A stretch of DNA of 64,000 bases from Nannocystis bainbridge (GCF_028368995.1 NZ_JAQNDL010000001.1:1984001-2048000); one strand, 5' to 3'; counted from the first letter of the stretch, positions 7,476 through 61,841 are shown. Numbers and translations: made by a program. Notes: generated from the letters alone by a model not told the origin.

Positions 7476-7940
7476 ATGCCGCACACGGACGAAGACGAGG
7501 TCGACGATCTGCTCGAGGGCTTCATCGTCGAGGCCGACCTGGCCGGACGCTGGCTCGAGCGGAATTACATGCCGCCGCGGCTGATGTTCTGGCGGCAGAA
7601 CCTCGACTTCAGCCGCGCCTCGCTGGCCAAGCTGGCGCCGATCGTGGCCCAGGTGCTGGCTGAGGGCTCGCCCGACGCGCTCGAGGAGGTGTCGCGCCGC
7701 GCCGCGCAGTACCTCGGCGAGACGATCCAGGCCCACGCCCGCTCGTTCTGGCAGCGCACCGACGGCCGCTTCGAGCTCCGCATCGAGCGCGCGACCGGAG
7801 TCGTCGACGTGCTGCCGATCGCCGAGCCGATCGCCCGCCTGCTGCTCGCCGTACGCAACGGCGACCCCAAGGCGGCCGAGCTGCTCGGGCAGGTGTTCGA
7901 CGACGCGGTGCGCGACGGCAACCCGCCGGTCGGGCGCTGA
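7476..7940 (+). CDS. putative immunity protein (DUF3806-like)
   Basis: Starts 4 bp after the effector stop; LDFSxxSLxxL...AAxYLGE...W pattern. Confidence 0.6.
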   Translation: MPHTDEDEVDDLLEGFIVEADLAGRWLERNYMPPRLMFWRQNLDFSRASLAKLAPIVAQVLAEGSPDALEEVSRRAAQYLGETIQAHARSFWQRTDGRFELRIERATGVVDVLPIAEPIARLLLAVRNGDPKAAELLGQVFDDAVRDGNPPVGR

Positions 7941-7972
7941 AGCTGTCCTCAGAGCCAGGCGAGGCGGTCGCC

Positions 7973-9763
7973 TCAGCGCAATGCGAGGACCAGCGCGACC
8001 AGCAATAGCAGGACCGTGTTGACGACGATCAGCGCGACCTTGACGGGCGACCTGGCCGCTTTTTCGGGCGCGGGCGCTGCCGAGGGGCTCGGCGGCCCGG
8101 AGCGCGCCGGCGGGGCCGCGGCGGGAGCGAGCGAGCGCTCGCGGTCAGGCTGGGGTTGCCCGGCGGTGAAAGAGACGGAGGGCGGCAGCAGCTCGGTGCG
8201 ATCGTTGCGCGCGCCGGACTGGCCGCTGTTGCCCATGAAGATCTCCGTGCGCGCGCCGGACTGGCCGCTGTTGCCCATGAAGATCTCGGTGCGGTCGTTG
8301 CGAACCGGCGCCGCTCCGCCGTCGCTGCGGGCCGCTGGCTTGCTGTCGACGAAGATCTCCGTGCGGGCCGCCGGCGCCGATTTGTTCTCGACGAAGATCT
8401 CCGTGCGAGCTGCCGGTTGTGACTTGTTCTCGACGAAGATCTCCGTGCGATCGCTGCGAGCTGCCGGCGGTGATTTGTTCTCGACGAAGATCTCCGTGCG
8501 AGCTACCGGCTGTGATTTGTCCTCGACGAAGATCTCCGTGCGGTCGCTACGGCCTGCCGGCGTCGCATTGGCCTCCGGCAGGAGTTCGGTCCGATCGATG
8601 CGCCCGGACGCGCTCGCGGCGGCGCTCGGGCCCGAGGCCATGCGCGCGGCGGGGACCTCCGACATGCGCAGGGCCGCCGCGCCGCGCACCGTCGACGGCA
8701 GCGGCTCGCTGCGCGGTGGGCCTGCCAGCGGGGCCGAGGGGCCGCGCAGTCGCTCGAACAGCCCTGACGTCCGCGGCTCCTCCAGCGGCGCCAGGCCGGC
8801 CGCCAGCGAGCGGACCGAGCTCGCCCCGGCGGGTGGGGCCGGCAGCGCCTGCGAGCTCCCGCCGATCGTCAGCGTCGGCGGGGCGCTCGGCGCGATCGCG
8901 GGCTTGGCAGGGCCGGCGGCCGTCGGCTTCTCGCTCGCGGCCGACTCGAGGGTCGGCGACGCGCCCGGCAAGCCCGGCGCGGGGTCGATCCCGAGCACCT
9001 CGCGCAGCGAAGCACGCAGGGCCGCCGCGTTCGGCGGGCGCGCTTCGGGCTCGACGGCCAGCGCCTGCGCGAGCAGCTCGTCGACGGCCGGCGGCACCTC
9101 CGGCACCAGCGAGCGCAGGCTCCTGGCCTGCTTCGGCGAGGGCCGCTCGCCGGCGATCATTTCAAACAAGATCACCGCCAGCGAGAACACGTCGCTGGCC
9201 GCGTCGCCCGGGCCCTTCTGCTGCTCCGGCGCGCGGTACCCCAATTCGTCGGCGCGGCCCTCGATCGGCTCGAGCTCGGCGATCCCATAGTCCAGCAGCT
9301 TGACCTGGCCCTGCGCGCCGACCGAGCAGCGCGCGCCCGTCAGCGCGCGATGAGGCAGACCGATCGTCGCCTCGACCTCCTCGAGGATCGCCGCCGCCTG
9401 TTCGCCGAGGCTCAGCGCTCGCTGCCACGGGAGTCGGCCCTCCTCGGCGCGCAGGCTGTCGAAGCTGCGGCCGAGGTCCACCTCGGCCAGGCAGTGCGGC
9501 GGCGACGGCGGCGTCTCGCTCACGCCCTGCAGCAGCGACAAGCCGGGCAGCGCCGCCGCGGTCGTCACCTCGATAAGTTGCGCGAACGAGGCCCAGGTGT
9601 CCGGCTCGCAGCGCGCGGGGTCGAAGACCACGAGGACGACCCCGCCGCCCTGCGCGTCCTGGGCGCGGAAGACCTGGGCCGGACCGTCGCCGCGGACGAA
9701 CGCGGTGAGCTTGTAACGATTGGCGATCCGATCGCCGACGCGCGGTGGGAAGCTGCCGGACAA
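7973..9763 (-). CDS. second Ser/Thr pseudokinase paralogue with RTEIF repeats and C-terminal TM
   Basis: Collinear with 1271..3763 (FDP..C.P..WA.F, HRALT, LDYG, GYRAPEQ, SPVK..L.VN.VL); TTG start chosen by homology to the paralogue. Confidence 0.85.
   Translation of the reverse strand: MSGSFPPRVGDRIANRYKLTAFVRGDGPAQVFRAQDAQGGGVVLVVFDPARCEPDTWASFAQLIEVTTAAALPGLSLLQGVSETPPSPPHCLAEVDLGRSFDSLRAEEGRLPWQRALSLGEQAAAILEEVEATIGLPHRALTGARCSVGAQGQVKLLDYGIAELEPIEGRADELGYRAPEQQKGPGDAASDVFSLAVILFEMIAGERPSPKQARSLRSLVPEVPPAVDELLAQALAVEPEARPPNAAALRASLREVLGIDPAPGLPGASPTLESAASEKPTAAGPAKPAIAPSAPPTLTIGGSSQALPAPPAGASSVRSLAAGLAPLEEPRTSGLFERLRGPSAPLAGPPRSEPLPSTVRGAAALRMSEVPAARMASGPSAAASASGRIDRTELLPEANATPAGRSDRTEIFVEDKSQPVARTEIFVENKSPPAARSDRTEIFVENKSQPAARTEIFVENKSAPAARTEIFVDSKPAARSDGGAAPVRNDRTEIFMGNSGQSGARTEIFMGNSGQSGARNDRTELLPPSVSFTAGQPQPDRERSLAPAAAPPARSGPPSPSAAPAPEKAARSPVKVALIVVNTVLLLLVALVLALR
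8186..8595 (-). repeat. intragenic repeats RTEIFVENKSxPAA / RTEIFMGNSGQSGA (9 RTE motifs)
   Basis: Repeated gacgaagatctccgtgcg with a 42-51 bp period. Confidence 0.9.
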
Positions 9764-9878
9764 GAGCGCTGTGCGACCGGAGGATAGGCCGCGGCCCGCG
9801 TGGCCGTCAACGCGAGCGGCCGCGAGCGAGGGCGCGCGTCGCCGGCCGAGCCGCGAGCGCGCACTGCTGTGATTGGTG

Positions 9879-10002
9879 GCAGTCGCGGGGTGAGTCACCC
9901 GGCGAGGCCACGAGGCCATCCGCGGACGGCGGTCCGGCGTCGCTATCGATCGCAGTCGCGGGAGAATCACTCGGCGAGGCCACGAGGCCATCCGCGGACG
10001 GC
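9879..10002. repeat. two ~52-bp direct repeats (period ~72 bp) upstream of pseudokinase 2
   Basis: gcagtcgcggg..gaRtcacYcggcgaggccacgaggccatccgcggacggc occurs twice. Confidence 0.8.
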
Positions 10003-10055
10003 CGCCGCGCGGAGCCTCGCACGCGTAGCCCGACGAACCGAGCGCGGTCACGCAG

Positions 10056-10289
10056 CTACTTGCGCAGTCGCCGGAGCGGCGAGGCGTCCGCGGCCAGCCA
10101 GCGCTTGCCGTCCTTGGCGAACACCGCGCTCCCCGATCGCCGCGGCTCGACCGGCGGCTCGCAGGACGAAGACTTCAACGCCGCGCGGAGCTTCCGCCGC
10201 CGGCACCGGCTGTCACGCAGCCTGTCCTGCTTCTCGCTGCTCGCCGTGGTGACCGCGACCACCGGGTGCCGCTTGTAAGAACGTGCCAT
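10056..10289 (-). CDS. small basic conserved hypothetical protein
   Basis: MARSYKRHP...SEKQD...KDGKRW pattern of a widespread small Arg/Lys-rich family (recognised from memory); GAGG upstream. Confidence 0.65.
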   Translation of the reverse strand: MARSYKRHPVVAVTTASSEKQDRLRDSRCRRRKLRAALKSSSCEPPVEPRRSGSAVFAKDGKRWLAADASPLRRLRK

Positions 10290-10331
10290 CGGATCGCCTC
10301 TCAACATGTCCTTAGGAACATGTCCACAAGG

Positions 10332-12080
10332 TCAGCGCGACGTCGCCAGCGCGGCCGCGTCGGCGACCGGCTGCAGGACCACCCGCGCCAGCCCGCGCAG
10401 CAACGGCTCGCGGGCGATCACCCGCGCGAGCGGCGGGCTGTGGGCGTAGTAAAAGCGGACCAGGTCGACACCGGTCGGCGAGGCTTTGAGAAAATCGTCG
10501 CGGAACGCCCGCAGGGCCGCGACCTGGGCCGCCCACGGCGCGCCCCAGGCGGCGGTGGCGAGGAAGCAGAACGTGTCGACCGTCTGGAACTTCTGCGCCT
10601 CGGTGGTGATGTCCGCGGTCACCAGCGGGCTGCGGTTGGTGCACGCGTCCTCGTGGCGGACCGCGAACTGGTAGGTGTAATCGGCCCACAGCTCACCGAC
10701 CTCGACGCTCACCAGGCCCTCGGTGCGGCCCAGCTCGGCGGCGGAGAAGGTCGACTGGTGGGCCGCGCCGAGCAGCTCCTCGGTGAGCGGCGCGTTGCTG
10801 GCGATCGAGAACACGTGCACTTCCTTGAGCGCGATCGTCGGGTCGGCGGGCGGCGGCAGGCGAAAGCTGACCTGCACGCGATCGAACGACTCGCCGACCA
10901 GCGCGAGGTCCTCGATCGGCGCCAGCGCGTGGACCTGCGCGCACGAGCCCCAGCCGTCGCCGGGATCGCCGCCGGTCGTGCCGTCCGGACCGTCGGACTC
11001 GCCGCTGTCGCTGCCGCTCCCGCCGTCGCCGGTCGTGCCGCCCTCGCCCGGGCCGCCGTGCGAGTAGACGCCCCAGCGGAACGTCTCACCGTTCTTGCTC
11101 ATGAGCTTGAGGCGATCGGCGCCGCTGCCGTCGGCCGCGCTGATGGTCGGATCGGGCGGATGCAGCGCGCCGGTCGCCCCGTCCCAGTCGGCGTAGCCAG
11201 CGTAATCGACGGTGCCGCGAAAGCCCTGGGTGAACGGATCGAACGGCACGGCGTAGACCACCGAGGGCTGCCCGAGGTACTCGACGCCGTAGGCCGAGAG
11301 GTCGGGGTCGACATAATGATCGGCGTCGCGGTCGAAGCTGAAGGCCGAATTCTCGTCGGCCTCGACGCCGATCTCGAGGTAGGCCGTGAGCGGCGCCCCG
11401 GCCATCGCCTCGGGCGGCACCAGCACCGTCACGAACGCGGCCTGGTCGCCGGGCGGGGTCGCGGCCGTGACGGCGTCGAGGTCGTTGAGCGTCGCGTAGG
11501 TCTGGGTCTCCTCGGCGTCGAGCGCTGGGTCGAACGCGAGGATGTCGTTGCGCGGCGGGTACCAGCTGATGTCGCCCTCCGGATCGAACTGCCCCTTGTC
11601 CGAATTAAAGACCTTGGGCGAGGGGCAGGTCATGGTGTCGACGGCGACCGTCTCGTGCTCGGACGGCGACAGCGGCCGACAAAAGTAGGGCTCGTCCGAC
11701 GAGGTGTTCTCGTGAAAGCCGAGCGAGTCGAGGTCGCCAGGATCCTCGTCGTGAAGGATGATCTTCGGGTAGGTCTTGCCGCGCCGGTGAGCCCACACCG
11801 GCAGCACCGACACGCGCGGCCCGTACGGCGCGCGCCAGCTCGAGAGGAAGTTCCAGATCCCCGGCCGGTTGCCGATCCCGTACTTGCCGACCGCCTGGGT
11901 GACCATGACGTCCCGGACGTAATTGCCCTTGGCGTCCTCGAGCCAGATCGCAATCTGGGCGTTCTTCACCGGCGTGAAGTGAAACTCGACCAGCACCGGC
12001 TCGGCTGCTGCAGCGACGCGCACGGCCGACGTCGGCGCGAGCAGGAGCGCGGCGAGCAAGAGCGTCGGCGAGCGCGGCAC
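10332..12080 (-). CDS. secreted protein: DUF2271-like N-terminus, FN3-like region, CFI-box-CTERM tail
   Basis: Signal peptide; QIAIWLED..GNYV...LPVWAH; C-terminal CFLATAAWG...LRAFRD...FYY.HSPPLA. Confidence 0.8.
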   Translation of the reverse strand: MPRSPTLLLAALLLAPTSAVRVAAAAEPVLVEFHFTPVKNAQIAIWLEDAKGNYVRDVMVTQAVGKYGIGNRPGIWNFLSSWRAPYGPRVSVLPVWAHRRGKTYPKIILHDEDPGDLDSLGFHENTSSDEPYFCRPLSPSEHETVAVDTMTCPSPKVFNSDKGQFDPEGDISWYPPRNDILAFDPALDAEETQTYATLNDLDAVTAATPPGDQAAFVTVLVPPEAMAGAPLTAYLEIGVEADENSAFSFDRDADHYVDPDLSAYGVEYLGQPSVVYAVPFDPFTQGFRGTVDYAGYADWDGATGALHPPDPTISAADGSGADRLKLMSKNGETFRWGVYSHGGPGEGGTTGDGGSGSDSGESDGPDGTTGGDPGDGWGSCAQVHALAPIEDLALVGESFDRVQVSFRLPPPADPTIALKEVHVFSIASNAPLTEELLGAAHQSTFSAAELGRTEGLVSVEVGELWADYTYQFAVRHEDACTNRSPLVTADITTEAQKFQTVDTFCFLATAAWGAPWAAQVAALRAFRDDFLKASPTGVDLVRFYYAHSPPLARVIAREPLLRGLARVVLQPVADAAALATSR

Positions 12081-48765: not shown

Positions 48766-50208
48766 ATGGTCATACGATTCGCCGCGGTCCTCGCATTCCT
48801 CGGGCTCGCCTGCCACGCCGCCGCGCCTGAAGTCGCTCCGCGCAGCGACCTGAGCCCGATCCGCGACGTCGTGTTCTCCCCGCAGCCGCTCGAAGCCAGC
48901 CACAACGCCCGGGTCGCGCGCCTCGTCGACGAGGCCGAGCGCAGCCTCGACATCGCCATGTACTCCTTCAACGACGCCGAGATCCGGGCCGCCCTCGCCG
49001 CGGCCGTCGAGCGCGGCGTCGAGGTCCGCCTCCTCTACGAGACCGCCCGCGAGGACCGCAAGCTGGACGGCGACGCGTTGCAGGACTCGCCCTCGGGCCG
49101 GCTCGAGCAGGACGGCGTCGACGTGCGATGGGTCAACAAGATCCTCCACCACAAGCTCATGATCGTCGACGGCCCGCGCGACGACCTCGAGGCGGCGGAC
49201 AGCGCCCACCTCGTCACCGGCAGCGGCAACTGGTCGCGCGGCGCCGCCACCCTCTACGACGAGAACACCCTGTTCCTGCGCGGCGAGCGAGCGCTTGTGC
49301 TGCGCATGCAACAGGAGTTCGAGCACCTGTGGCAGCACTCGCGCGATTTCGTCGGCGATCCCGCGCTCGCCAGCCGCGCCTCGACCCTGCTGCTCGACGA
49401 CGCGACGATCGACGACGAGCCGGACGCGCACGTGTACTTCACCTCGGCCAACTTCGACCTGCGCGGCGCCGACACCTTCGTCGCCAGCGGCCGCGAGACC
49501 GTCGCCGACGCCCTCGTGGCCGCCATCGCCGACGCCACCGAATCGATCGACATCGCCTCCGCCCACCTGCGCCTGCGCGCCGTCGCCGACGCCCTGATCG
49601 CCCGCGCCGACGAGCTGCCGATCCGCGTCTACCTCGACGGTCAGGAGTACATCGCCGCCGCCACCCACGCCGCCCAGGCCGAAGCGCTCGCGGCCTGCCT
49701 CGCGGCGGCCGGCGCCGATCCGGCGCGTCAGCGGGCCTGTGAAGCTCGCGGCGCTCGCTTCGGCTACCAGGTCGGCGCCGCCGGCGTCGCCGTCCGCTAC
49801 AAGGTCTACGCCTACCGCTGGCACGCCAGCTACGCCCTGCAGATGCACCACAAGTACATGCTGATCGACGGCGACGAGCTGTGGACCGGCAGCTTCAACC
49901 TGTCTGCCAACGCCGAGCACGACACCTTCGAGAACATGCTCGTGCTGCGCGGCCCCGCCTACGCCGGGCTCGTCGCCCGCTTCGCCGCCAACTTCGCCGC
50001 CATCTGGGACACCGGCCGCGAAGACGAGCGCCTGGCCGCCCTGCAGCGCGACCTCGACGACGGCGGCCCGGTCCCGCTGGTGTTCCCGGCCATGGCCCTG
50101 GAGCACGGCGAGATCGCCGATCTCAAGCGGCAGATCCGCGAGGCCTGCCCCGCCGTCGACTCCCCACATTACCGCGCCCACCCGGAGTCGCACCGGACCT
50201 GCGAGTGA
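48766..50208 (+). CDS. phospholipase D-family lipoprotein (two HKD motifs)
   Basis: LAC lipobox; HHKLMIVD...GSGN and HHKYMLID...GSFN. Confidence 0.9.
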
Positions 50209-50226
50209 GCTGTCCTTCGGGACAGC
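50209..50226. repeat. palindrome GCTGTCC-TTCG-GGACAGC (14-bp family)
   Basis: Immediately follows the PLD stop codon. Confidence 0.8.
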
Positions 50227-50545
50227 CTGCCTCCGCGGCCCCCGTCGCCGGCGGCACGGCGCCCGAGCGGGGCCCGCGCGGCTCGCCGTCACGTCGCGCC
50301 GCGGTCACGTGACCGCCTCGCGGGGTGACCCGAGAGTCATGTCGAGACCGACAGCTCGGTCGGGCCGGCGCTCGCCCACGCCGCGCCAGGCCCGGGCGCG
50401 CCCCTGCGCCGAGATCGCGCAGGGGGCCATTCTCGCGCGCGTAAACACCGTTCAACGATTGCTCTCGCCTTGCTCCCGCGGGCCGTCCTCGGCTACCGTC
50501 GCGGCCTCGTTCGCCAAGCAGTCTGCGGTGGTCGGGAGGGGTCGG

Positions 50546-52702
50546 ATGGCAGCGCTCGCATCTATTCTCGCGTTGATCGGCAACCGTCCGGTCTACACCT
50601 TCAATGTCGACGGGCTCGACGCCGAGGCCCGGGTGCTGCGGTTCACCGGCCAGGAGGGGGTCAGCGCGCTGTTCGAGTTCCGGCTCGAGCTCGCCTGCCC
50701 GCACATGCTCGAGGTCGACCAGCTCGTCGGCAAGACCGGCGTGCTCGAGATCGCCGGCGTCGACGAGCCGCGGTTCGTCCACGGCATCGTCGCCCACGCC
50801 GAGTACATCGGCGAGAGCCGCGAGTTCGCGCTGTTCGCCGTCACTCTGGTGCCGCGGGTGTGGCGGCTGTCGCTGCGCCAGGACTGCCGGATCTTCCAGG
50901 AGCAGCGCACGCCGGACATCATCCGCGCGGTGCTCGAGGTGGCCGGCTTCAAGCCCAGCGCGTACCGCTTCGACATCGTCGCCTCGTACGCCCCGCGGAA
51001 CTACTGCGTGCAGTACCGCGAGAGCGACTGGGACTTCATCAGCCGCCTGCTCGAGGAGGACGGCCTCTTCTATTACTTCGAGCACGAGGAGGACAAGCAC
51101 GTCCTCGTCATGTCCGACCACAAGGGCACCCACCGGCCGATCGCCGGCGACCCCGAGGTGTGGTGGAACAGCCAGGACGGGCACGTCGAGGATCGCGAGC
51201 ACATCCACGAGTTCCGGTTCGGCCAGCACATCCGCTCCGGCAAGGCCAGCCTGCGCGACTTCTACTTCCCGACCCCTGATCAGGGCATGGAGGTCCGCTC
51301 CGAGGCCAAGCACGACACCGACCTCGAGGTCTACGACTACCCCGGCGAGTACCGCTTCCCCGGCGGCAACGACCCTGACCGCGGCCCTGGCATCGCCAAG
51401 AACCGCATCGAGGCGCTGCAGGCCACCCGTCGCAGCGGCACCGGCAAGGGCGACTGCATGCGCCTCGTCCCCGGCTACGCCTTTACGCTCGCCAACCACC
51501 GGCGCAGCGAGCTCAATGGCGAGTACACCCTGCTGACCGTGCAGCACCGCGGCGAGCAGCCGCAGGTCCTCGACCAGGACGCCAACAGCGGCAACGCCTT
51601 CGTCTACGAGTCGCGCTTCACGTGCATCGAGCGGGCTGTCATCTACCGCCCGACGCGCGCCACCCCGCGGCCGTTCGTGCGCGGCCTGCAGTCGGCCGTC
51701 GTCGTCGGCCCGCCCGGCGAAGAGGTCCACGTCGACGAGCAGGCCCGCGTCATGGTCCAGTTCCACTGGGACCGCCAGGGTCGCTTCGACGATCACAGCA
51801 GCTGCTGGATCCGCGTCAGCCAGCTGTGGGCCGGCGCCGGCTGGGGCGCCATGTTCATCCCGCGGGTCGGCCACGAGGTCCTCGTCGACTTCCTCGAGGG
51901 CGACCCCGACAAGCCGATCATCACCGGCCGCGTCTATCACGGCAACAACAACATCCCCTACCCGCTGCCGGCCGAGAAGACCAAGAGCACCATCAAGTCG
52001 GAGAGCTCGCTCGGCGGCGGCGGCTACAACGAGTTCCGCTACGAGGACCTCAAGGGCTCCGAGCAGATCTTCATGCACGCCGAGCGCGACCTCGACATCC
52101 ACGTCAACCATGACCGGATGGAGAACGTGCTGCACGACCGCCACCTGCGGGTCGGCGACGCCGTCAACGGCGAGAAGGTCGGCGACTTCAACGAGCTCGT
52201 CATGCGCGACCGTCACGTCCGCGTCGACCGTCACCGCCACGAGCACATCGGCGGCGACGCCTTCGTGCACGTCGGCGGCATCGACGGCGACGGCAACCAG
52301 CACGTCATCATCGACAAGCACCAGTACACGCTGGTCCGCGTCGACCGCCACGACCACGTCGAGGGCTCGGCGATGGCCAAGGTCGACAAGACCACCTCGC
52401 TGACCATCGGCGACGAGGCTCACCTCAAGGTCGGCAGCAAGACCGCGATCGAGTCGGGCGCCGAGATCCACGTCAAGGCCCCGACGATCGTCATCGAGGC
52501 CGGCACCGGCATCACCGTCAAGGGCCCCGGCGGCTTCATCACCATCGACGCCTCGGGCGTCGTCATCCAGGGTCGCCTCGTCAAGGTCAACAGCGGCGGC
52601 GCTGCGCTGGCCGGCAGCGGTTGCGCCCCGATCGCCCCCGAGGACGCGCGCCCCGCCGAGCCCCAGTCACCCAAGCCCGCCGACCGCGGCGCGGAGACCT
52701 GA
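50546..52702 (+). CDS. vgrG: T6SS spike protein VgrG/TssI
   Basis: YCVQYRESDWDFISRLLEEDG, WIRVSQLWAG.GWG, PRVGHEVLVDFLEGDPD, HAERD, DUF2345-like tail. Confidence 0.95.
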   Translation: MAALASILALIGNRPVYTFNVDGLDAEARVLRFTGQEGVSALFEFRLELACPHMLEVDQLVGKTGVLEIAGVDEPRFVHGIVAHAEYIGESREFALFAVTLVPRVWRLSLRQDCRIFQEQRTPDIIRAVLEVAGFKPSAYRFDIVASYAPRNYCVQYRESDWDFISRLLEEDGLFYYFEHEEDKHVLVMSDHKGTHRPIAGDPEVWWNSQDGHVEDREHIHEFRFGQHIRSGKASLRDFYFPTPDQGMEVRSEAKHDTDLEVYDYPGEYRFPGGNDPDRGPGIAKNRIEALQATRRSGTGKGDCMRLVPGYAFTLANHRRSELNGEYTLLTVQHRGEQPQVLDQDANSGNAFVYESRFTCIERAVIYRPTRATPRPFVRGLQSAVVVGPPGEEVHVDEQARVMVQFHWDRQGRFDDHSSCWIRVSQLWAGAGWGAMFIPRVGHEVLVDFLEGDPDKPIITGRVYHGNNNIPYPLPAEKTKSTIKSESSLGGGGYNEFRYEDLKGSEQIFMHAERDLDIHVNHDRMENVLHDRHLRVGDAVNGEKVGDFNELVMRDRHVRVDRHRHEHIGGDAFVHVGGIDGDGNQHVIIDKHQYTLVRVDRHDHVEGSAMAKVDKTTSLTIGDEAHLKVGSKTAIESGAEIHVKAPTIVIEAGTGITVKGPGGFITIDASGVVIQGRLVKVNSGGAALAGSGCAPIAPEDARPAEPQSPKPADRGAET

Positions 52703-52705
52703 GCC

Positions 52706-54850
52706 ATGCCGCCCAGCGCACGCATCACGGACGCCCACACCTGCCCCGTTCACGGCGGCGGCCCGGTCTGCGTCGGCGACGCGACCATCATCGTCGGCAA
52801 CGTCCCCGCGGCCCGGTTGGGCGACGGGCTCATCTGCCCGTGCGGCCCCGACCTCATCTCGCAGGGCGAGAACACGGTGATCTTCGGCAACATGCCGGCC
52901 GCGCGCCTCGGCGACGCCACCGCCCACGGCGGCGCCCTGGCCCAGGGGTGCCCGACGGTGCTCATCGGCTCGACCGCGCAGACCGAGGCGCTCAAGACCG
53001 ACAAGCCGTTCTGCGAGAAGTGCCCCTACGAGCAGCGGCCGCCCGAGCTCGAGGGCTTCCCGCCGGTCATCATCGACGCCCACATGCACATCCAGAGCGG
53101 CAACTGTGCCCCGCTGCCGCCGCTGCGGGCCAAGGCCATGGGCGTGCGCATCGATCGCGGCACCGTCAACTTCATGGCCGGCGTCCCGATCCTCAGCTCG
53201 CTCATGGTCGGCGACATGGGGGAGGTCGCGCCCGAGCCGACCCACGTGGTCGGCGAGCGGCTCATCAGCGAGAACAACGGCATCGATTTCCTGGCCGGCG
53301 GCGCCGGTGGTTACTTCGTCGGCATCTCGATCGTGCTGACGATGGACATGGACTTCTGCCACCTCGACGGCTACGAGGGCCTGCACATCTATCAGGAGGA
53401 CGAAGAGGGCCGGCGCTGGTACGCCAACCGCAAGAACGGCACCCAGCGCTACGAGGACTGCCGGCGCGTCTACCTCGACAGCAACGAGGACCTGCCGATG
53501 GACCACGAGGAGGACAATCCTCAGGCCCAGGAGGGCGCGATCGACAGCTCGCGCCAGTTCGACCGCTACCTCAAGGACATGCGCTCCAACTGCTACGAGA
53601 CCTGGCGGCAGCAGCGGCGGCGCACCGAGATGGTGGCCGCGCAGAACCCCCTGCGCCTGCTCCCGCTCTACCACTACGAGCCGCGCCGCTACATCTCGAT
53701 GGAGGCGCCCGACGCCCCGTTCCAGAACCTGGTCGAGAACGGCGGCCTCTACGTCGGCCTCAAGATGTACACCTCGCAGGGCTACATGCCGAAGGAGTCG
53801 ACCGAGCGCGGCAAGAAGACCGGCGACGTCACCCGCGCCTTCTTCAGCCGGCTCGCCGGCGAGGGCCTGCCGCTCCAGACCCACTGCACCCCGGAGGGTT
53901 GGTACACCCACCACCGCGAGCTCTACATCGACCTCGCCAGCGACGAGATTCGCGACCAGTACAAGCACCCGATCGACGGCTCGCTCGACGACCGCGAGCG
54001 CATGCAGTACTTCCAGGACCACTTCGTGCACCCCGAGGCGTGGCGCCTGGTCATGCAGGACAACCCGTCGCTGCGGCTGTGCCTGGCCCACTGGGCCTCC
54101 GACAAGCGGCTGTGGCGCGACAACGTCGCCGACTTCAAGAAGCCGATCATGACGCGCGAGGAGCTGCGCGAGTTCCAGAAGTGGGCGATCGGCCGCAATG
54201 GTTCGCGGTACTACCGCAACATCCACGACCTGTGGTCCGAGTCGCCGTTCGCCAGCAAGGCCATGCCCTCGGTCGACGCCAAGGACACCATCTACGCCAA
54301 GAGCTGGATCCGCAGCATCGTCGAGATGTGCGGCGAATACCCCAACTTCTACACCGACCTGTCCTACCTGCCGATCTTCGAGAAGTACGAGGCGTGGGGC
54401 GGCGAGGACGTGCCCTACTGGCACCAGTTGGTCGAGATCCTGCGCGAATACCCGCACATGGTCGACAAGCTGATGTTCGGCACCGACTGGTACATGATCC
54501 TGATGGACAAGCTCGGCTACCGCAAATGGTACGAGGAGACCATCAAGGCGCTCGAGGAGGTCTCCAAGGCGCTCGAGGGCCAGTGGTCGGCCCACTTCCT
54601 GTTCCACCAGTTCGCCATCATCAACCCGATCAAGTTCTACCGGCTCGACAAGATCGTCGACAAGCTCAAGGCCAACCTCACCACCGCGATCGGCCGGCTC
54701 GACGGCGGCGACAAGGCCAAGATGTTGTCCGACCTCGAGCGCCGGCACCAGGTGCTCGCGGCCGCGTGCGACCAGGCCCGCCTGTCGCGGATGCAGAGCG
54801 CGGTCAAGCAGGGCCCGCTGCGCTTCACCGGACCGGAGGGCTGGCAGTGA
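52706..54850 (+). CDS. PAAR domain fused to an amidohydrolase TIM barrel (putative T6SS effector)
   Basis: SARITDAHTCP, PAARLGD x2, PFCEKC; IDAHMH, GLKMY, THC, CLAHW, YTDLSY, MFGTDW. Confidence 0.85.
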   Translation: MPPSARITDAHTCPVHGGGPVCVGDATIIVGNVPAARLGDGLICPCGPDLISQGENTVIFGNMPAARLGDATAHGGALAQGCPTVLIGSTAQTEALKTDKPFCEKCPYEQRPPELEGFPPVIIDAHMHIQSGNCAPLPPLRAKAMGVRIDRGTVNFMAGVPILSSLMVGDMGEVAPEPTHVVGERLISENNGIDFLAGGAGGYFVGISIVLTMDMDFCHLDGYEGLHIYQEDEEGRRWYANRKNGTQRYEDCRRVYLDSNEDLPMDHEEDNPQAQEGAIDSSRQFDRYLKDMRSNCYETWRQQRRRTEMVAAQNPLRLLPLYHYEPRRYISMEAPDAPFQNLVENGGLYVGLKMYTSQGYMPKESTERGKKTGDVTRAFFSRLAGEGLPLQTHCTPEGWYTHHRELYIDLASDEIRDQYKHPIDGSLDDRERMQYFQDHFVHPEAWRLVMQDNPSLRLCLAHWASDKRLWRDNVADFKKPIMTREELREFQKWAIGRNGSRYYRNIHDLWSESPFASKAMPSVDAKDTIYAKSWIRSIVEMCGEYPNFYTDLSYLPIFEKYEAWGGEDVPYWHQLVEILREYPHMVDKLMFGTDWYMILMDKLGYRKWYEETIKALEEVSKALEGQWSAHFLFHQFAIINPIKFYRLDKIVDKLKANLTTAIGRLDGGDKAKMLSDLERRHQVLAAACDQARLSRMQSAVKQGPLRFTGPEGWQ

Positions 54851-55905
54851 TCGTCCAGCCCGGCCCCGACGTCGAGCGCCGCGAGCTGCTCGCCGTCGCC
54901 TTCCACAACTACCCCCTCGACGACGCCCTCGTCGCCTGCCAGATCCCCATCGGCACCCCCGGCGGCGCCGCCGTCATCTCCTACGAGAACGCCCTCTGCT
55001 CGCTCCACGTCGACGAGCACGGCGCCGCCATCCGCGAGCTCATCACCGACGTCGTCCCCGCGATCGCCCCCGGCGACCTCGCCCCGGTCCACCCCGCCGT
55101 CCCGGGCCCGGTCTGCACCTACCTGCAGAGCCGACGCATGATCCGCTACGACCTCGCGGCCCACGCGACCCGCCAGCTGCGCATGCTCCACGGCGACAAC
55201 ACCCTGCTCGCGGGCGCATGGCTCTCGGGCCAGGAGACGCGCCTCGCCGTGCAGGTCGAGGACACCAGCCGCTACGACGACGGCGGCCTGGTGCTCGGGC
55301 GCATCGAGGTGTTCGACCTCGCCACCGACCGCCGCCTCGGCGCCGCTCCGCTGCCGCGGGCCCGCGACGCCGGCCAGGGCTGGGCGGCCGGCGCCGACAT
55401 CGTGGCGATCGCCCAGAATGGCGGCCTGGCGGTGTTCACCGCCGATTTCGCCCTGCTCATCGAGCACCCGCTGACCCGCGCCGCCCGGGACGCGCTCGCC
55501 GAGGCTGGCGCGTCCGAGGTCCACTCCTTGCGGATCCACCCCACGCAGCCGCTCGCGGTCCTCGCCGCCTGCACCGCCGACACGATGGGCGTCCGCGACT
55601 TCACGCTCCACCGGATCACGTGGAGCGCGACCGGCAGCTTCGAGGTGCGCCGCCTGGCCAAGCTGCACGCCGTCGGCGACGTCGGCTTCGGCGCGTTCGC
55701 CCCCGCCGGCGACGCCCTCGACGTCCGCATCGCCACCGGCGGCGTCACCTGGATGATGCTCGCCGTCGGCCCGCACGCGCTGCTCGACCTCGGCCCCTCG
55801 CGCGGCCTGCAGGGCGCCGGTTGGTCGGGCCCGCGGCGGTTCCTCGCGTTCGAGCGCGGCGCGGCCCAGATCGCCGTATGGAACCTGCCCGAAGGGACAG
55901 CATGA
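54847..55905 (+). CDS. putative immunity protein (beta-rich, unassigned)
   Basis: GTGA overlap with the effector and ATGA overlap with the next gene; GC3-biased frame. Confidence 0.65.
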   Translation: MIVQPGPDVERRELLAVAFHNYPLDDALVACQIPIGTPGGAAVISYENALCSLHVDEHGAAIRELITDVVPAIAPGDLAPVHPAVPGPVCTYLQSRRMIRYDLAAHATRQLRMLHGDNTLLAGAWLSGQETRLAVQVEDTSRYDDGGLVLGRIEVFDLATDRRLGAAPLPRARDAGQGWAAGADIVAIAQNGGLAVFTADFALLIEHPLTRAARDALAEAGASEVHSLRIHPTQPLAVLAACTADTMGVRDFTLHRITWSATGSFEVRRLAKLHAVGDVGFGAFAPAGDALDVRIATGGVTWMMLAVGPHALLDLGPSRGLQGAGWSGPRRFLAFERGAAQIAVWNLPEGTA

Positions 55906-56735
55906 GCGCGCGCGGCATCGTCGAGCTGTGCTGGGGCCCGCAGCAGGGCGCCAAGGCGGTCGTCACGCCCGGGCGGCCGCTGACGCTCGGCCGCGACCCG
56001 GCGGCCTCGCTGGTGCTCGACGACCCGACCGTCGCCCCGGTGCACGCCGCCGTCGAGTGGGACGGCAGGACCGCGCGCCTGCGCCACCTCGGCGGCCCGG
56101 CCCTGACCTTGCTCTCGGGACAGGCCGTGACCACCGTCGCCCCGCTCGAGCACGCCGCGTGGATCCGCATCGGCGGCACCGACCTCAGCTTCCACGTCGA
56201 GGCGCTCACCCCGGCCCCCTGGTCGCGCGAGCCGGACGACGAGGTCGCCGCCGAGGCCGCGCTGGCGCACCTCCAGCGCGTCCCCGGCCCGCTGTTCGCC
56301 GTGCTCGACACCGCCTGCGAGCCGCGCATCGCCGAGCTCGTGCGCGAGTCGGTGGCCCCGTGGCGCTCGCTGTTCGACGGGGTCGAGGGCGCCCGCCTCG
56401 CCGACGCCGCCCCGCATGTGGTCTCGCTGTCGGCCGACCCGCGCCTGTGCGCCGACCTCGTGCGCGAGGGCTGGGGCTACCGCTGGGGCGTGCTGCTGAC
56501 CAGCGACCGCTCGCTGTTCGAGGTCCGCCAGCACCTGCGCAAGTTCCTCCTGGTCCAGCGCGAGGGCACCCCGGAGCCGACCTACTTCCGCTTCTACGAT
56601 CCCGGCGTGCTGCGCGTGTTCCTCGACACCTGCACCCCGACCGAGCTGTCGCAGTGGTTCGGCGGCGTGATCCGCTGCCACCTCGGCGAGGACCTCGACA
56701 GCCCGACCGGCTGGTGGCGCTTCGACGCCCGCTGA
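55902..56735 (+). CDS. FHA-DUF4123 fusion (T6SS effector adaptor)
   Basis: LTLGR..A.L.L.DP.V..VH; LFAVLD, SLF.G, AP..V, WG, HLRKFL.V, FRFYDP.VL. Confidence 0.85.
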   Translation: MSARGIVELCWGPQQGAKAVVTPGRPLTLGRDPAASLVLDDPTVAPVHAAVEWDGRTARLRHLGGPALTLLSGQAVTTVAPLEHAAWIRIGGTDLSFHVEALTPAPWSREPDDEVAAEAALAHLQRVPGPLFAVLDTACEPRIAELVRESVAPWRSLFDGVEGARLADAAPHVVSLSADPRLCADLVREGWGYRWGVLLTSDRSLFEVRQHLRKFLLVQREGTPEPTYFRFYDPGVLRVFLDTCTPTELSQWFGGVIRCHLGEDLDSPTGWWRFDAR

Positions 56736-56740
56736 CCGCC

Positions 56741-56782
56741 GTTCGGACATGTCCCTTGTGGCATGTCCGAACGGACATGCTC
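56741..56782. repeat. 14-bp phased palindrome array between convergent genes
   Basis: Cores at 56748, 56762, 56776. Confidence 0.85.
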
Positions 56783-56802
56783 TAAAATACAGGTGGCCCC
56801 GC

Positions 56803-57177
56803 TCACGGGGAGGCGAACGACGGGATGTCGATCTTGTCGAGGCCGCGCAGCGAGACGCTGACGCCGCCGCCGATCCAGATCACCGGCGCCGCGATCGTCA
56901 CCACCAGCCCCACGAGCACCGCCGCGAGCGCCGGGCCCCGCATCAGCCCCGCGCGATCGCCTCGCCACAGCCGCACCCCGGCGACCACGGCGACCACGCC
57001 CGCCGCCGCCTGGGCGACCGCCGGCACCAGCATCAGCGTCACGCCGGGCTCGCGCAGCCCAGACGCCAGCAACAACCACAGCAGCAGGTGCACCACCGCC
57101 AGGCCCGCGGCGATCTGCGTCCAGCGGGCCGCGAACACGCGCCCGGCCGCCAGCGAAACCTCGGGGTCGGAGCCCAT
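56803..57177 (-). CDS. small membrane protein
   Basis: Three hydrophobic segments. Confidence 0.55.
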   Translation of the reverse strand: MGSDPEVSLAAGRVFAARWTQIAAGLAVVHLLLWLLLASGLREPGVTLMLVPAVAQAAAGVVAVVAGVRLWRGDRAGLMRGPALAAVLVGLVVTIAAPVIWIGGGVSVSLRGLDKIDIPSFASP

Positions 57178-57264
57178 GCCCCAGCTTCGTCGATGTCGCG
57201 CAGCCCGTCGAGGCCCGGCTCCCAACGCTCCCCCGACACCTCGATGGAATCGCGCGCGCCCTCT

Positions 57265-58299
57265 TCACACCGTGATCACGACCTTGCCCTGCGTGTGTCC
57301 GGCCGCCACGTGCCCCAGCGCTGCCCCCGTCTCGGCCAGCGCGTACGTATGCTCGATCACCGGCCGGAGCTTGCCCGCCGCCACCAGCTCCGCCAGCAGC
57401 TGTAGATCGGCCTGGCGCGGCGCCGTCATCAGCGACGCCATGCGCGGCCCCGGCAGCGCGTTCCGCAGCATCATGCGCGTCAGCCGGCCCATCGGCCCCA
57501 GCCACTCGCCGCCTCCGCCCGCGCAGGCCACGTACACCCCCGTGGGCGTCAGCAGCGAGCGGCAGATCGCCAGCGACCGATCGCCGATCATGTCGAACAC
57601 CACGTCGTGGCGCTCGGGCAGCGCCGCGTAGTCCTCGCGGGTGTAGTCGATCACCCGCGCAGCCCCGAGCGACATGACCGTTTGCACATGTCGGGTGCTG
57701 CACACCGCCGTCACCTCGGCCCCGAGCGCCCGGGCCACCTGCACCGCCATCGTCCCGACCCCGCCCGACGCCCCGACGATCAGCGCCCGCTGCCCCGCCT
57801 GCAGCTTGCCGACGTCGCGCAGCCCCTGCAGCGCCGTCATCCCCGCGTCGGGCAGCGCGGCCGCCTCGGCGAAGCTCGCCTCCGCCGGCATCACCGCCCA
57901 CCGCTCCGCCGGCGCGCGCACGTACTCGGCGAAGCCCGCCTGCACCAGCCCGAACACCCGCTGGCCCGGCGCGAACGCGGTGACCCCCGGCCCGACCGCC
58001 GCCACCACCCCGGCCACGTTCTGCCCGGCCACCCGCTGCTTCGGCCGCCGCAGCCCGAACATCAGCCGCAGCAGATACGGCTTGCCCGTCAGCAAGTGCA
58101 CGTCGCCCCTGCTCACCGACGCCGCATGCACCCGCACCAGCACCTCGCCCGCGCCCACCTCCGGGCGCGCGACCTCCTCCAGGCGCAGCACCTCGGGCCC
58201 GCCGTAGGCCGACTGGACGATCGCGCGCATGCTCGCGGGCAGGGCCTGCACGGCCGTGGAAGGATGGATGGAAGCACTCGCGCCGTTCGCCATGGTCAT
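57265..58299 (-). CDS. NAD(P)-dependent MDR/quinone oxidoreductase-like protein (start may be 58230)
   Basis: YGGPEVL, AAALP.AG.TALQGL, GASGGVG..AVQ.A, GKVVI. Confidence 0.92.
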   Translation of the reverse strand: MTMANGASASIHPSTAVQALPASMRAIVQSAYGGPEVLRLEEVARPEVGAGEVLVRVHAASVSRGDVHLLTGKPYLLRLMFGLRRPKQRVAGQNVAGVVAAVGPGVTAFAPGQRVFGLVQAGFAEYVRAPAERWAVMPAEASFAEAAALPDAGMTALQGLRDVGKLQAGQRALIVGASGGVGTMAVQVARALGAEVTAVCSTRHVQTVMSLGAARVIDYTREDYAALPERHDVVFDMIGDRSLAICRSLLTPTGVYVACAGGGGEWLGPMGRLTRMMLRNALPGPRMASLMTAPRQADLQLLAELVAAGKLRPVIEHTYALAETGAALGHVAAGHTQGKVVITV

Positions 58300-60460: not shown

Positions 60461-61135
60461 TCAGGCGCTCGACGGGTCGCTCGGCATCGTGATCGGCGTG
60501 ATCGAGTTGGTGAACGCCTGGATGATCGTCGTCACGCCCTGCGGCAGCGGCAGCTGGCCGGCGTGGACCCGCACGCCGTACTTCGCCGAGTTGCTCTTCT
60601 CGTAGTGGGTGTCGTGGCTGGTCGCCCGGGCGCTGTCGTACGACACGCTGCCGGTGACCGAGGCCGAGAACATGCCGAAGCCGACCTTGGCCGAGAAGGT
60701 CGACGAGGCCGCCATCTTGTCTTCGGTGGTCTCGTTGCTGGCCTCGCTGTAGCTCGACTTCACCTCCATGTCGAAGGTGATGTCGACGTTGTCGACCGCC
60801 AGCGAATTGAGCGGGAGGATCGTCAGCAGCGGCAGCGAGAAGGTGGTCGTGACCTGGTCGATGCTCGGCTTGCTGTCGGCCACATCCGGGTCGGCCGGGA
60901 TCAGCACGCCGCGCGTCAACTTCATGTCGATGATGATCGGCGAGTACGTATCGACCTTCTCGTCGCCCTCCCCCGTCGACTGGATCGCAAAGGCCGTGTC
61001 GAGCAAGAACCGCGTCTGCGTGACGGCCATCATGTTGTTGGCCTCGGCGGCCGCGAGCAGCGGGGCGCCGATGAGGTCGCTCATCGGGAGCCCGGTGAAT
61101 TGTTCTGCCATGGATACGAGTTGTGGTTCAGCCAT
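60461..61135 (-). CDS. DUF2589-family protein
   Basis: QF.GLPM..LIG.PL.AA..A, PLL.I.P.NSL.V..V...F.MEV, NSAKY.V.V.A.Q.P.P.G. Confidence 0.8.
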   Translation of the reverse strand: MAEPQLVSMAEQFTGLPMSDLIGAPLLAAAEANNMMAVTQTRFLLDTAFAIQSTGEGDEKVDTYSPIIIDMKLTRGVLIPADPDVADSKPSIDQVTTTFSLPLLTILPLNSLAVDNVDITFDMEVKSSYSEASNETTEDKMAASSTFSAKVGFGMFSASVTGSVSYDSARATSHDTHYEKSNSAKYGVRVHAGQLPLPQGVTTIIQAFTNSITPITMPSDPSSA

Positions 61136-61232: not shown

Positions 61233-61841
61233 TCAGCCGGGGATCTGGGCCCGGAGGGCGCGCTCGTAGCCCTCGACGATCAGCCGCAGCCCCTGGCTCG
61301 ACGGCATCTCGCCGAGCACGATCTCGAGGGTCGCCGGGCGCCTGCCGGACGCCTCGCCGTCGACCTCCGCGCCGGCGGAGCGGGTCGGCACGCCGGCCGC
61401 CAGCGACTCGCCCTGGACGCTGAGATCGAGGTCGGTCTTGAGGCGCAGCTCGGTGATCTGCGCGAACGAGATCGGCGCGAGGGCGATCAGCGGCACGTGC
61501 ACGGTGTGGACGGCCGGGCCCTCGCGGGTCATGTGCGGGTATTGAATGGCGGTGGTCTTGGGCCGCAGGGTGGTGGTGGCGCGTCGCTGCGACTTCAGGG
61601 CCCCCGCGGCCCGCTCGAGCGCCTCGGCGGCCTGACGAATCGCCTCGGGGTCGCCGGCGGCGCTGGCGGCCTCCGAGGCCGCCAGCGCGTCGGCGGTGGC
61701 CGCCGCGACCTCCGGCGACGGGTCGTCCTCGACGGGCTCGAAATAGCCGTGAAAGAGCTCGATATTGCGAGCGGCGAGCGCGTTCGCTGCCTCGGCCACG
61801 CTGCGCTGAACGGCCGCCACCAATCCGTCGAGGTTCAACAT
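61233..61841 (-). CDS. DUF2589-family protein (second subtype)
   Basis: VPLIAL.P....I.EL.L, C-terminal GL..I.EGY..AL..QIP. Confidence 0.7.
   Translation of the reverse strand: MLNLDGLVAAVQRSVAEAANALAARNIELFHGYFEPVEDDPSPEVAAATADALAASEAASAAGDPEAIRQAAEALERAAGALKSQRRATTTLRPKTTAIQYPHMTREGPAVHTVHVPLIALAPISFAQITELRLKTDLDLSVQGESLAAGVPTRSAGAEVDGEASGRRPATLEIVLGEMPSSQGLRLIVEGYERALRAQIPG

Follow-up and report, generated by a model that had tools for sequence, protein, structure and literature searches.

The closest described relatives of the system considered here are TsxE and TsxI of Myxococcus xanthus DK1622. According to the parts of Troselj et al. (2018; PMC5801462) available to us, TsxE (MXAN_5572) is a protein with predicted LysM and amidohydrolase 2 domains, its gene lies downstream of the orphan vgrG2, and genetic experiments show that it is required for killing dependent on a type VI secretion system (T6SS). 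TsxI (MXAN_5571) protects from TsxE, and M. xanthus cells without tsxEI are killed by the parent and turn rounded. The same text states that the TsxE homolog of Nannocystis exedens bears a PAAR domain, and its authors guessed that the cell wall is the target of TsxE, with TsxI then expected to be periplasmic. Here, we describe a four-gene cassette of Nannocystis bainbridge, consisting of vgrG, a PAAR::amidohydrolase gene, a third open reading frame (ORF3) and an FHA-DUF4123 gene (ORF4), which occupies positions 50546-56735 of a 64,000-nucleotide stretch (GCF_028368995.1 NZ_JAQNDL010000001.1:1984001-2048000) that we refer to as the window. We report the homology of the first three genes to vgrG2-tsxE-tsxI, the fold and conserved site of the amidohydrolase-like cargo, and the gene order and domain fusions found across the family, and we conclude that the cassette is very probably a TsxE/TsxI-family T6SS effector-immunity system whose effector is fused to PAAR.

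Pairings of a PAAR toxin with a DUF4123 chaperone are known from other bacteria, as in the case of TseT with TecT of Pseudomonas aeruginosa and the Tap-1/TEC adaptors of Vibrio cholerae. The window shares with these systems the arrangement of a spike-tip-fused toxin beside a DUF4123 gene and vgrG. It differs from them in that its DUF4123 protein has an N-terminal FHA-like domain and in the fold of the toxin.

Relationship to TsxE and TsxI of Myxococcus xanthus

The first three proteins of the cassette each have a counterpart in M. xanthus. By BLASTP, residues 118-709 of the effector match TsxE with an E value of 9e-108 and 33% identity, ORF3 matches TsxI with an E value of 6e-24 and 31% identity over 291 amino acids (aa), and the window VgrG matches VgrG2 with an E value of 6e-135 and 37% identity. 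The M. xanthus sequences used for comparison come from strain AM003 (L006; tsxE at 7767-9773, tsxI at 9788-10933), in which three consecutive genes start with MAAQFN, METYVVK and MEPNKD, in agreement with the peptides encoded by the vgrG2, tsxEI and tsxI cloning primers given in PMC5801462. The Myxococcus hansupus ortholog (P0033) likewise matches the cargo (E 2.7e-85). The window thus has a TsxE homolog with a TsxI homolog directly downstream and vgrG directly upstream, so that the gene order vgrG-toxin-immunity, the amidohydrolase-2 type domain and its conserved site are the same in both organisms.

The two systems also differ in several respects. The N-terminal LysM domain of M. xanthus TsxE is not present in the window protein, which has PAAR in its place. 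LysM does not define the TsxE family, because the PAAR-bearing N. exedens protein is counted as a tsxE homolog in the text of PMC5801462. In addition, M. xanthus VgrG2 is ≈115 aa longer than the window VgrG, and the FHA-DUF4123 gene is an extra component of the window cassette; a profile of it matched none of the loci from Myxococcus or Corallococcus.

The effector family, its immunity partner and the PAAR-fused Nannocystis form are therefore already known and have been in print since 2018. The original prediction for this locus, made from the sequence alone, had read it as an operon of a spike gene, a spike-tip toxin, an immunity gene and an adaptor gene, and had put the toxin forward as a candidate new class of T6SS effector. 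The layout stands, and the coordinates, the junctions (a 3-bp gap and 4-bp overlaps) and the domain calls were all correct. The claim of a new class fails because the family, including the PAAR-bearing N. exedens homolog, had been described as an effector in 2018 (PMC5801462). The accompanying statement that no T6SS toxin with this TIM-barrel fold had been characterized is contradicted by the same text, in which M. xanthus TsxE is shown genetically to be a T6SS effector. We found no biochemical study of TsxE in open-access papers and bioRxiv, including the available parts of PMC10433427 and PMC5961919, and a literature search on T6SS amidohydrolases, immunity and the TIM barrel returned no work on an amidohydrolase-fold T6SS toxin. 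Zhang et al. (2012; PMC3482391) list other TIM-barrel toxins, with no amidohydrolase among those in the available part of the article.

Fold and metal site of the cargo

The Pfam family Amidohydro_2 (PF04909) matches the effector protein (P0002) over residues 529-615 only (9.4e-8, 32.6 bits against a gathering cut-off of 26.4). We aligned cargo residues 100-714 with 58 homologs (alignment A1, 59 sequences; positions follow P0002 numbering). Invariant throughout the alignment are D124-x-H126-x-H128, M213-D214, P326-R327-R328, G351-x-K353-x-Y355, H393, H462 and D551-x-S553, and conservation reaches at least 90% for H323 and for D594, which lies in a GTDW motif. An AlphaFold2 model of the cargo built with A1 has a mean predicted local distance difference test (pLDDT) score of 90.3 and a predicted template modeling score of 0.91. 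The model is a (beta/alpha)8 barrel in which insertions contribute roughly 300 extra residues, and the conserved site residues sit at or immediately after successive predicted strands. As in amidohydrolase barrels, strand 1 is followed by the HxH motif, strands 5 and 6 by a His each and strand 8 by the Asp, and the invariant K353 falls in predicted strand 4. An HxH...H...H...D pattern is common across the amidohydrolase superfamily, and the fuller set of HxH, Lys, His, His and Asp is the ligand set of binuclear amidohydrolases with a carbamylated lysine.

Structural comparisons place the cargo among the Amidohydro_2-type hydrolases. In a search of ≈48,000 PDB representatives with the cargo model, the top structure was 4dlf (Z 18.5, 259 residues aligned, root mean square deviation 3.1), followed by 3irs (Z 18.4), 4i6k (Z 18.1) and 6uvz (Z 18.1), with isoaspartyl dipeptidase (Z 15.8) and TatD (Z 15.0) lower down. 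The Z scores of the Amidohydro_2 lactonase-type structures span 16.6-18.5, as against 13.3-15.0 for TatD-family structures (1j6o, 2y1h, 1zzm and 4pe8), and the TatD family was absent from the Pfam scan of the window proteins. Foldseek matches to the cargo were weak (best E 1e-4, TM ≈0.5 per target); the best were all of the Amidohydro_2 type and, for the predicted model, name no specific activity. The ESM Atlas returned generic Amidohydro_2 clusters only (scores 0.89-0.91). PDB sequences compared with the A1 profile gave nothing below an E value of 0.5, and a single-sequence PDB search matched the PAAR part only. Relative to Amidohydro_2 enzymes such as the COG3618 lactonase-type 4dlf, the LigI-type 4i6k, ACMSD, LigW and IDCase, the cargo shares the (beta/alpha)8 barrel and the HxH/His/His/Asp positions but is only 11-15% identical, and it differs in its large insertions and its invariant strand-4 lysine. 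The amidohydrolase fold, with its metal-site pattern and large insertions, had been anticipated from the sequence and is borne out both by the conservation in A1 and by the confident barrel with its Amidohydro_2-type structural neighbors.

Carriers and fusions in the effector family

The fusion of PAAR to the amidohydrolase-like domain recurs in related genomes. Nannocystis punicea, N. pusilla, N. exedens and Nannocystis sp. RBIL2 have the same gene with 91-92% cargo identity (91% for N. exedens, L003), and a 715-codon open frame with a PAAR match by phmmer is present in all four of these named loci. In N. punicea and N. exedens, direct reading of the locus showed the whole 714-aa ORF with the same PAAR N terminus. 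Among named proteins, a "PAAR domain-containing protein" of Nannocystis sp. SCPEA4 comes closest (90% identity), and PF05488 and PF04909 occur in the same layout in eight separate 90%-identity clusters (P0005-P0007 and P0009-P0013). The fusion is therefore not an artefact of assembly, an outcome that the original prediction had named as fatal to its proposal.

With the cargo as query, a full HMMER scan across 1.84 billion representatives yielded 556 homologous clusters at E ≤ 1e-3, of which 266 remained at E ≤ 1e-10 and 101 at E ≤ 1e-30. Of 232 proteins fetched, and excluding those of the window itself and the homologs of ORF3, we used the 151 in which DxHxH was found. The motif lies before residue 50 in 73 of these, between residues 50 and 99 in 28, and deeper in the protein in the remainder. 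By eye and by hydrophobicity, none of 78 proteins with an extension shorter than 60 aa has a signal-peptide-like stretch.

Longer N termini often carry recognizable modules. Sixty of the 65 relatives with an N-terminal extension of at least 60 aa were scanned against Pfam, the other five being left out for size. T6SS carriers among the 60 comprise PAAR in two (P0016, P0065), Tox-PAAR-like in two (P0044, P0125), Hcp in three (P0075, P0162, P0180) and, below cut-off, the VgrG C-terminal DUF2345 in one (P0107). A survey for amidohydrolases fused to PAAR or VgrG, which had been suggested together with the original prediction, found PAAR and, below cut-off, a C-terminal part of VgrG, along with Tox-PAAR-like and Hcp fusions. 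Peptidoglycan-binding modules form a second group, with LysM in three proteins (P0065, P0074, P0189), PG_binding_1 in five (P0074, P0107, P0138, P0159, P0181) and OmpA in six (P0109, P0113, P0132, P0138, P0156, P0189). Together, these three modules occur in 11 distinct proteins of the 60, and further such fusions are found among the loci described below. The rest of the scanned relatives mostly have Amidohydro_2 alone or no domain. One more (P0108) has a Peptidase_M19 segment ahead of the TsxE-like domain, an effector variant of ≈1200 aa that is also seen in L026 (1783-5403). Peptidase_M19 is the renal-dipeptidase type and likewise has an amidohydrolase fold.

To place the effector genes in context, we took 79 loci from a scan of one genome per species and searched their six-frame ORFs with phmmer. 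Thirty-four loci have vgrG, seven have a canonical PAAR and 28 have a PAAR-like domain, in most cases encoded by a gene of its own immediately upstream of the effector; each of two Hcp queries matched four loci. At least 52 of the 79 loci have some T6SS marker. This count is a lower bound because one of the marker-less loci, L075, has PAAR and LysM by Pfam; short contigs and numerous Fibrobacterota loci are among the 27 in which no marker was found. An unfused arrangement is present in a Polyangiaceae metagenome-assembled genome (L005), which has vgrG, PAAR, FHA-DUF4123, an effector without PAAR, and immunity. Overall, the TsxE-family toxin domain is spread over several phyla and is tied to all three T6SS carrier types.

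Two further features of the family deserve mention. Many stand-alone effectors of the Desulfobacterota type (P0045-P0062, P0145, P0172, P0178 and others; L018, L022, L031, L036, L048) have a common hydrophilic N-terminal motif of ≈20 residues, (K)VEQNDPxGxxLKSxKPDLL, which may be a loading signal; similar stand-alone effector genes of Desulfobacterota loci (for example, in L018 and L022) lie directly downstream of a separate Tox-PAAR-like gene. In L009, whose record is labeled Comamonas sp. KCTC 72670, vgrG2-tsxE-tsxI are laid out as in Myxococcus, and the organism label may not fit.

The immunity gene and its N terminus

The gene after the PAAR fusion had been proposed to encode immunity, and its homology to TsxI upholds that assignment. 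ORF3 (P0003) matches no Pfam family and is 83% identical to a hypothetical protein of N. exedens. Its model is confident (pLDDT 95.5), all-beta and of the beta-propeller type, with WD40-type Foldseek matches at ≈3e-9. A hidden Markov model (HMM) built from ORF3 and close homologs, and run against the ORFs of the loci in three iterations, detects a TsxI-family ORF in 75 of the 79 loci, with the domain mostly starting within ≈150 nt of the effector gene end. The four loci without one (L028, L030, L035, L037) are cut off, by the end of the locus or of the contig, at the effector match or shortly after it. Eight loci (L027, L042, L044, L055, L056, L063, L066 and L075) have tandem TsxI-like copies or fragments, from two to many, and these series downstream of one effector look like orphan-immunity arrays. 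A prediction of the complex between the cargo and ORF3 (alignments A1 and A2), run without controls, scored 0.00 against a mark of 0.32 and bears neither way on the pairing.

The N termini of the immunity proteins divide along phylum lines. We called an N terminus signal-like if, upstream of the conserved domain, a stretch of 10 residues had a Kyte-Doolittle mean of at least 2.0. By this hydrophobicity rule, 51 of the 58 loci outside Myxococcota have a signal-like immunity protein, many with a lipobox-like Cys, whereas two have none, one lacks the N terminus and four have no immunity ORF. Among the 21 Myxococcota loci, which were grouped by record organism with L009 and L010 added for their Myxococcus-like layout, only L070 is signal-like. 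The other 20 have no such segment, no Myxococcota locus lacks the N terminus or the immunity ORF, and the 20 include window ORF3 as well as M. xanthus TsxI, the latter taken from its start as published. In these 20 loci, the distance from the effector end to the first profile-aligned residue is 13-64 nt, or the two overlap, which leaves little room for a signal peptide. We also considered an upstream start for ORF3, but the in-frame stretch has the wrong codon-position GC and no hydrophobic segment, and this candidate was rejected. In N. pusilla Na p29 (L002; 9710-11734 and 10584-10898), the immunity frame runs into the FHA-DUF4123 frame and the final ≈35 residues of the immunity protein are encoded in a different frame, which suggests a frameshift, or an error in sequencing, close to the 3' end of the gene in that assembly.

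The FHA-DUF4123 protein

The last gene of the cassette encodes a protein with strong similarity to DUF4123 (PF13503; 7.6e-29, 100.8 bits against a cut-off of 25.8), which is preceded by matches to Yop-YscD_cpl (PF16697; 1.4e-9) and FHA (PF00498; 4.3e-7). Its NCBIfam match to the Tla1 chaperone is weak (3e-7) and far below cut-off. The FHA-DUF4123 architecture recurs in Myxococcota, namely in Nannocystis, Archangium, Polyangiaceae, Polyangium and Chondromyces, and most of 56 matches to ORF4 have PF13503 together with PF00498 or PF16697. Among the 79 loci, full-length matches to the ORF4 profile are confined to L005 and the four loci from Nannocystis, and L058 matches weakly (E 4.9e-9) in the FHA-like part only. 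We found no paper that joins "DUF4123" and "FHA domain" among the matches listed, which is no proof of absence. Encoded beside vgrG and the effector, ORF4 is most simply read as a DUF4123 adaptor-type protein, with the adaptor role itself putative.

In an alignment of the FHA-like part of eight sequences, G30-R31 and H48 are invariant, and these correspond to what we take to be canonical FHA residues. The Ser of the FHA "SxxH" motif, three residues before H48, is Ala in ORF4 and in its closest aligned homolog (P0234, N. radixulma). That ORF4 exerts phospho-dependent control over loading is possible, though unsupported.

Organization of the cassette and neighboring genes

The N. bainbridge genome has a GC content of ≈70%, and the four ORFs of the cassette, all on the plus strand, have third-codon-position GC (GC3) values of 0.94-0.99 and distribute GC over the codon positions as real coding sequence does (Table 1). 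The frame of vgrG is open to a longer GTG start at 50309, which is less likely than the ATG at 50546; its product matches TIGR03361 (1.7e-185), Phage_GPD (6.2e-90), Phage_base_V and Gp5_trimer_C. The junction between vgrG and the PAAR gene, TGAGCCATG, leaves a 3-bp gap, and the two following junctions are 4-bp overlaps, GTGA between the PAAR gene and ORF3 and ATGA between ORF3 and ORF4. The PAAR_motif match covers residues 16-79 (56.1 bits against a cut-off of 27), and the PAAR part is matched by sequences of solved structures (9rce, SalCis10, 2.8e-16; also 8gra, 4jiv and 7pq5).

Table 1. Features of the cassette, its surroundings and related loci (window positions unless a prefix is given)
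Feature	Location	Strand	Remarks
vgrG (T6SS spike)	50546-52702	+	718 aa from ATG at 50546; GC3 0.94
PAAR::TsxE-like effector gene (P0002)	52706-54850	+	714 aa; Pfam PAAR_motif and Amidohydro_2
PAAR spike-tip domain, residues 1-99	52706-53002	+	PF05488 4.5e-15; two exact PAAR motifs
Linker and predicted (beta/alpha)8 amidohydrolase-fold cargo, residues 100-714	53003-54847	+	model, alignment A1
TsxI-like immunity gene ORF3 (P0003)	54847-55905	+	352 aa; beta-propeller model; without signal peptide
FHA-like and DUF4123 putative adaptor/chaperone gene ORF4	55902-56735	+	277 aa; PF13503, PF16697, PF00498
FHA-like part of ORF4	~55935-56195	+	Pfam
DUF4123 part of ORF4	~56292-56654	+	Pfam
PLD-like gene	48766-50205	+	two PLDc_2 stretches, 2.6e-40
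DUF2589 gene	60464-61135	-	8.6e-30
DUF2589 gene	61236-61841	-	1.5e-8
Immunity gene with signal-like N terminus, example	L018 9811-11064		contrasts with window 54847-55905
Immunity gene with signal-like N terminus, example	L075 9647-11068		contrasts with window 54847-55905
PAAR-N-domain ORF, same genome	C4:3935-4264
PAAR-N-domain ORF, same genome	C2:1682353-1682628
PAAR-N-domain ORF, same genome	C1:1781441-1781812
PAAR-N-domain ORF, same genome	C1:1879144-1879521
PAAR-N-domain ORF, same genome	C1:1561907-1562287
PAAR-N-domain ORF, same genome	C1:1534833-1535198
PAAR-N-domain ORF, same genome	C1:704369-704608

No T6SS core gene adjoins the cassette, whose neighbors are the PLD-like gene upstream and Zn-dehydrogenase and TetR genes downstream. 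The cassette is thus an orphan vgrG island, as is the case for vgrG2 of M. xanthus; elsewhere, the genome has three TssC matches, and the cargo and the immunity gene are each present in a single copy. The PLD-like gene lies directly upstream of vgrG in the window, but we regard it as a neighbor and not as part of the cassette, because a matching fragment in N. punicea (L001) stands at the start of the locus and is separated from vgrG by three ORFs. The two DUF2589 genes are adjacent to each other. A promoter and terminator scan of 50100-57300 gave no promoter-like sites and four terminator-like sites against 1.5 expected, all within genes, and is uninformative for a genome with 70% GC.

Seven further ORFs of the genome have a related PAAR N-domain, six with 49-63% identity and one with a weak 39% (E 4.3e-4). 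Their open frames of 168-416 aa are far below the 714 aa of the effector, and one has an internal TGA. These ORFs look like a polymorphic PAAR-toxin repertoire.

Discussion

We consider it likely that the cassette operates as a PAAR-fused version of the TsxE/TsxI system. The four genes would be made as one translationally coupled operon, and the PAAR domain of the 714-aa protein would cap the VgrG trimer, with the 615-aa amidohydrolase-fold cargo riding on the spike and PAAR sitting where M. xanthus TsxE has its LysM module. The FHA-like/DUF4123 protein would be the loading chaperone. After firing, the cargo would act in the neighboring cell as a metal-dependent hydrolase with HxH, Lys, His, His and Asp as ligands of the binuclear kind, most likely on a cell-envelope, peptidoglycan-type substrate, and the beta-propeller TsxI homolog would neutralize it in kin cells. 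Only for M. xanthus have T6SS-dependent killing, a protective effect of TsxI and the rounding of target cells been reported (PMC5801462). For N. bainbridge, we infer that the effector is secreted and toxic and that ORF4 is a chaperone, and likewise infer the metals bound, the substrate and the compartment of action.

A metal-dependent hydrolase that would act on the cell envelope is the best-supported reading of the mechanism, and we put the chance that the substrate is a peptidoglycan-type envelope molecule at about even. The envelope is suggested by the peptidoglycan-binding fusions of three unrelated kinds, by the exported-looking immunity proteins of most lineages and by the rounding of M. 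xanthus cells. The original prediction had offered hydrolysis of nucleotides or cofactors, a TatD-like nuclease activity or signal degradation; the family-wide evidence points to the envelope instead, although each of these is possible.

Several observations weigh against this reading. The window protein itself has no peptidoglycan-binding module, and its nearest solved folds are Amidohydro_2-type lactonases and decarboxylases rather than peptidoglycan hydrolases, with TatD close behind (Z 15.0 as against 18.5). Secretion and toxicity of the window protein are predictions, as is the role of its strand-4 lysine as a carbamylated metal bridge. The missing signal peptide in 20 of the 21 Myxococcota immunity proteins argues for a cytoplasmic immunity protein and hence a cytoplasmic site of action in this lineage, which would fit badly with a purely periplasmic cell-wall target. 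The Ser-to-Ala change in the FHA "SxxH" motif also makes phosphothreonine binding by ORF4 doubtful.

These N termini bring in the most serious alternative, namely that the protein is the same TsxE-family effector but acts in the cytoplasm in Myxococcota, on a soluble or inner-leaflet substrate such as a nucleotide, a cofactor, UDP-MurNAc-peptide or lipid II. Besides the absence of a hydrophobic N terminus from the 20 Myxococcota immunity proteins, window ORF3 among them, the first residues of P0003 are modeled as propeller strands (pLDDT ≈93-97), and the rounding of M. xanthus cells would fit a blocked supply of wall precursors as well. We nevertheless regard this alternative as the less probable one, since the immunity protein bears a signal or lipobox in 51 of the 58 loci outside Myxococcota, and three unrelated types of peptidoglycan-binding module occur on relatives of the cargo, with a LysM on M. 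xanthus TsxE itself (PMC5801462). A plain nucleotide or cofactor target accounts for neither the exported immunity proteins nor these modules. The same exported proteins and fusions count against a TatD-like metal-dependent nuclease delivered to the cytoplasm. Such an enzyme would explain why TatD structures match the barrel with Z scores of 13.3-15.0 and would share the superfamily-wide HxH...H...H...D pattern, but the lactonase-type structures rank above TatD, Pfam assigns Amidohydro_2 and no TatD, and the strand-4 residue is an invariant lysine; we judge it very unlikely.

Even more improbable is that the protein is no toxin at all, whether because the fusion arose in assembly or because a housekeeping amidohydrolase happens to lie beside vgrG. 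That secretion and toxicity are predicted for this organism leaves some room for it. The fusion is, however, found in four named Nannocystis genomes and eight independent 90% clusters, a cognate immunity gene accompanies the effector in 75 of the 79 loci, in some as apparent tandem arrays, both genes are single-copy in the genome, and the M. xanthus ortholog is a proven toxin (PMC5801462).

On the envelope-directed reading, the cassette would resemble the peptidoglycan-hydrolase effector Tse1 and its periplasmic immunity protein Tsi1, as described in the available part of PMC3391265. Both are probably wall-directed T6SS toxins with dedicated immunity proteins, which in the TsxI family are exported in most phyla. 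The window cargo has a metal-dependent TIM barrel in place of the papain-like amidase of Tse1, its activity on peptidoglycan is putative, and the Myxococcota immunity protein is apparently cytoplasmic. A speculative extension, to which we give a low probability, is that the TsxE domain is an enzyme class so far unrecognized among envelope-directed T6SS toxins, namely a binuclear hydrolase of the amidohydrolase fold that acts on a substrate with peptidoglycan chemistry present on both faces of the inner membrane, such as lipid II or the stem peptide. A substrate of this kind would explain both the LysM, PG_binding_1 and OmpA fusions and the loss of the signal peptide in the Myxococcota immunity proteins only.

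As a discovery, the cassette itself matters little. Its value lies in the well-defined question of the chemistry and site of action of TsxE, for which the family offers a fully conserved metal site, members in several phyla, fusions to peptidoglycan modules, and a split between exported and non-exported immunity proteins. Our contribution is to show how widely the effector-immunity module is spread, with an immunity gene in 75 of the 79 loci, and to describe its fusions to carriers and peptidoglycan modules and the division of immunity signal peptides by phylum. If the substrate is indeed a bond of the wall or of a wall precursor, TsxE would be, to our knowledge and from the literature searches we made, the first T6SS toxin to attack such a bond with an amidohydrolase fold.

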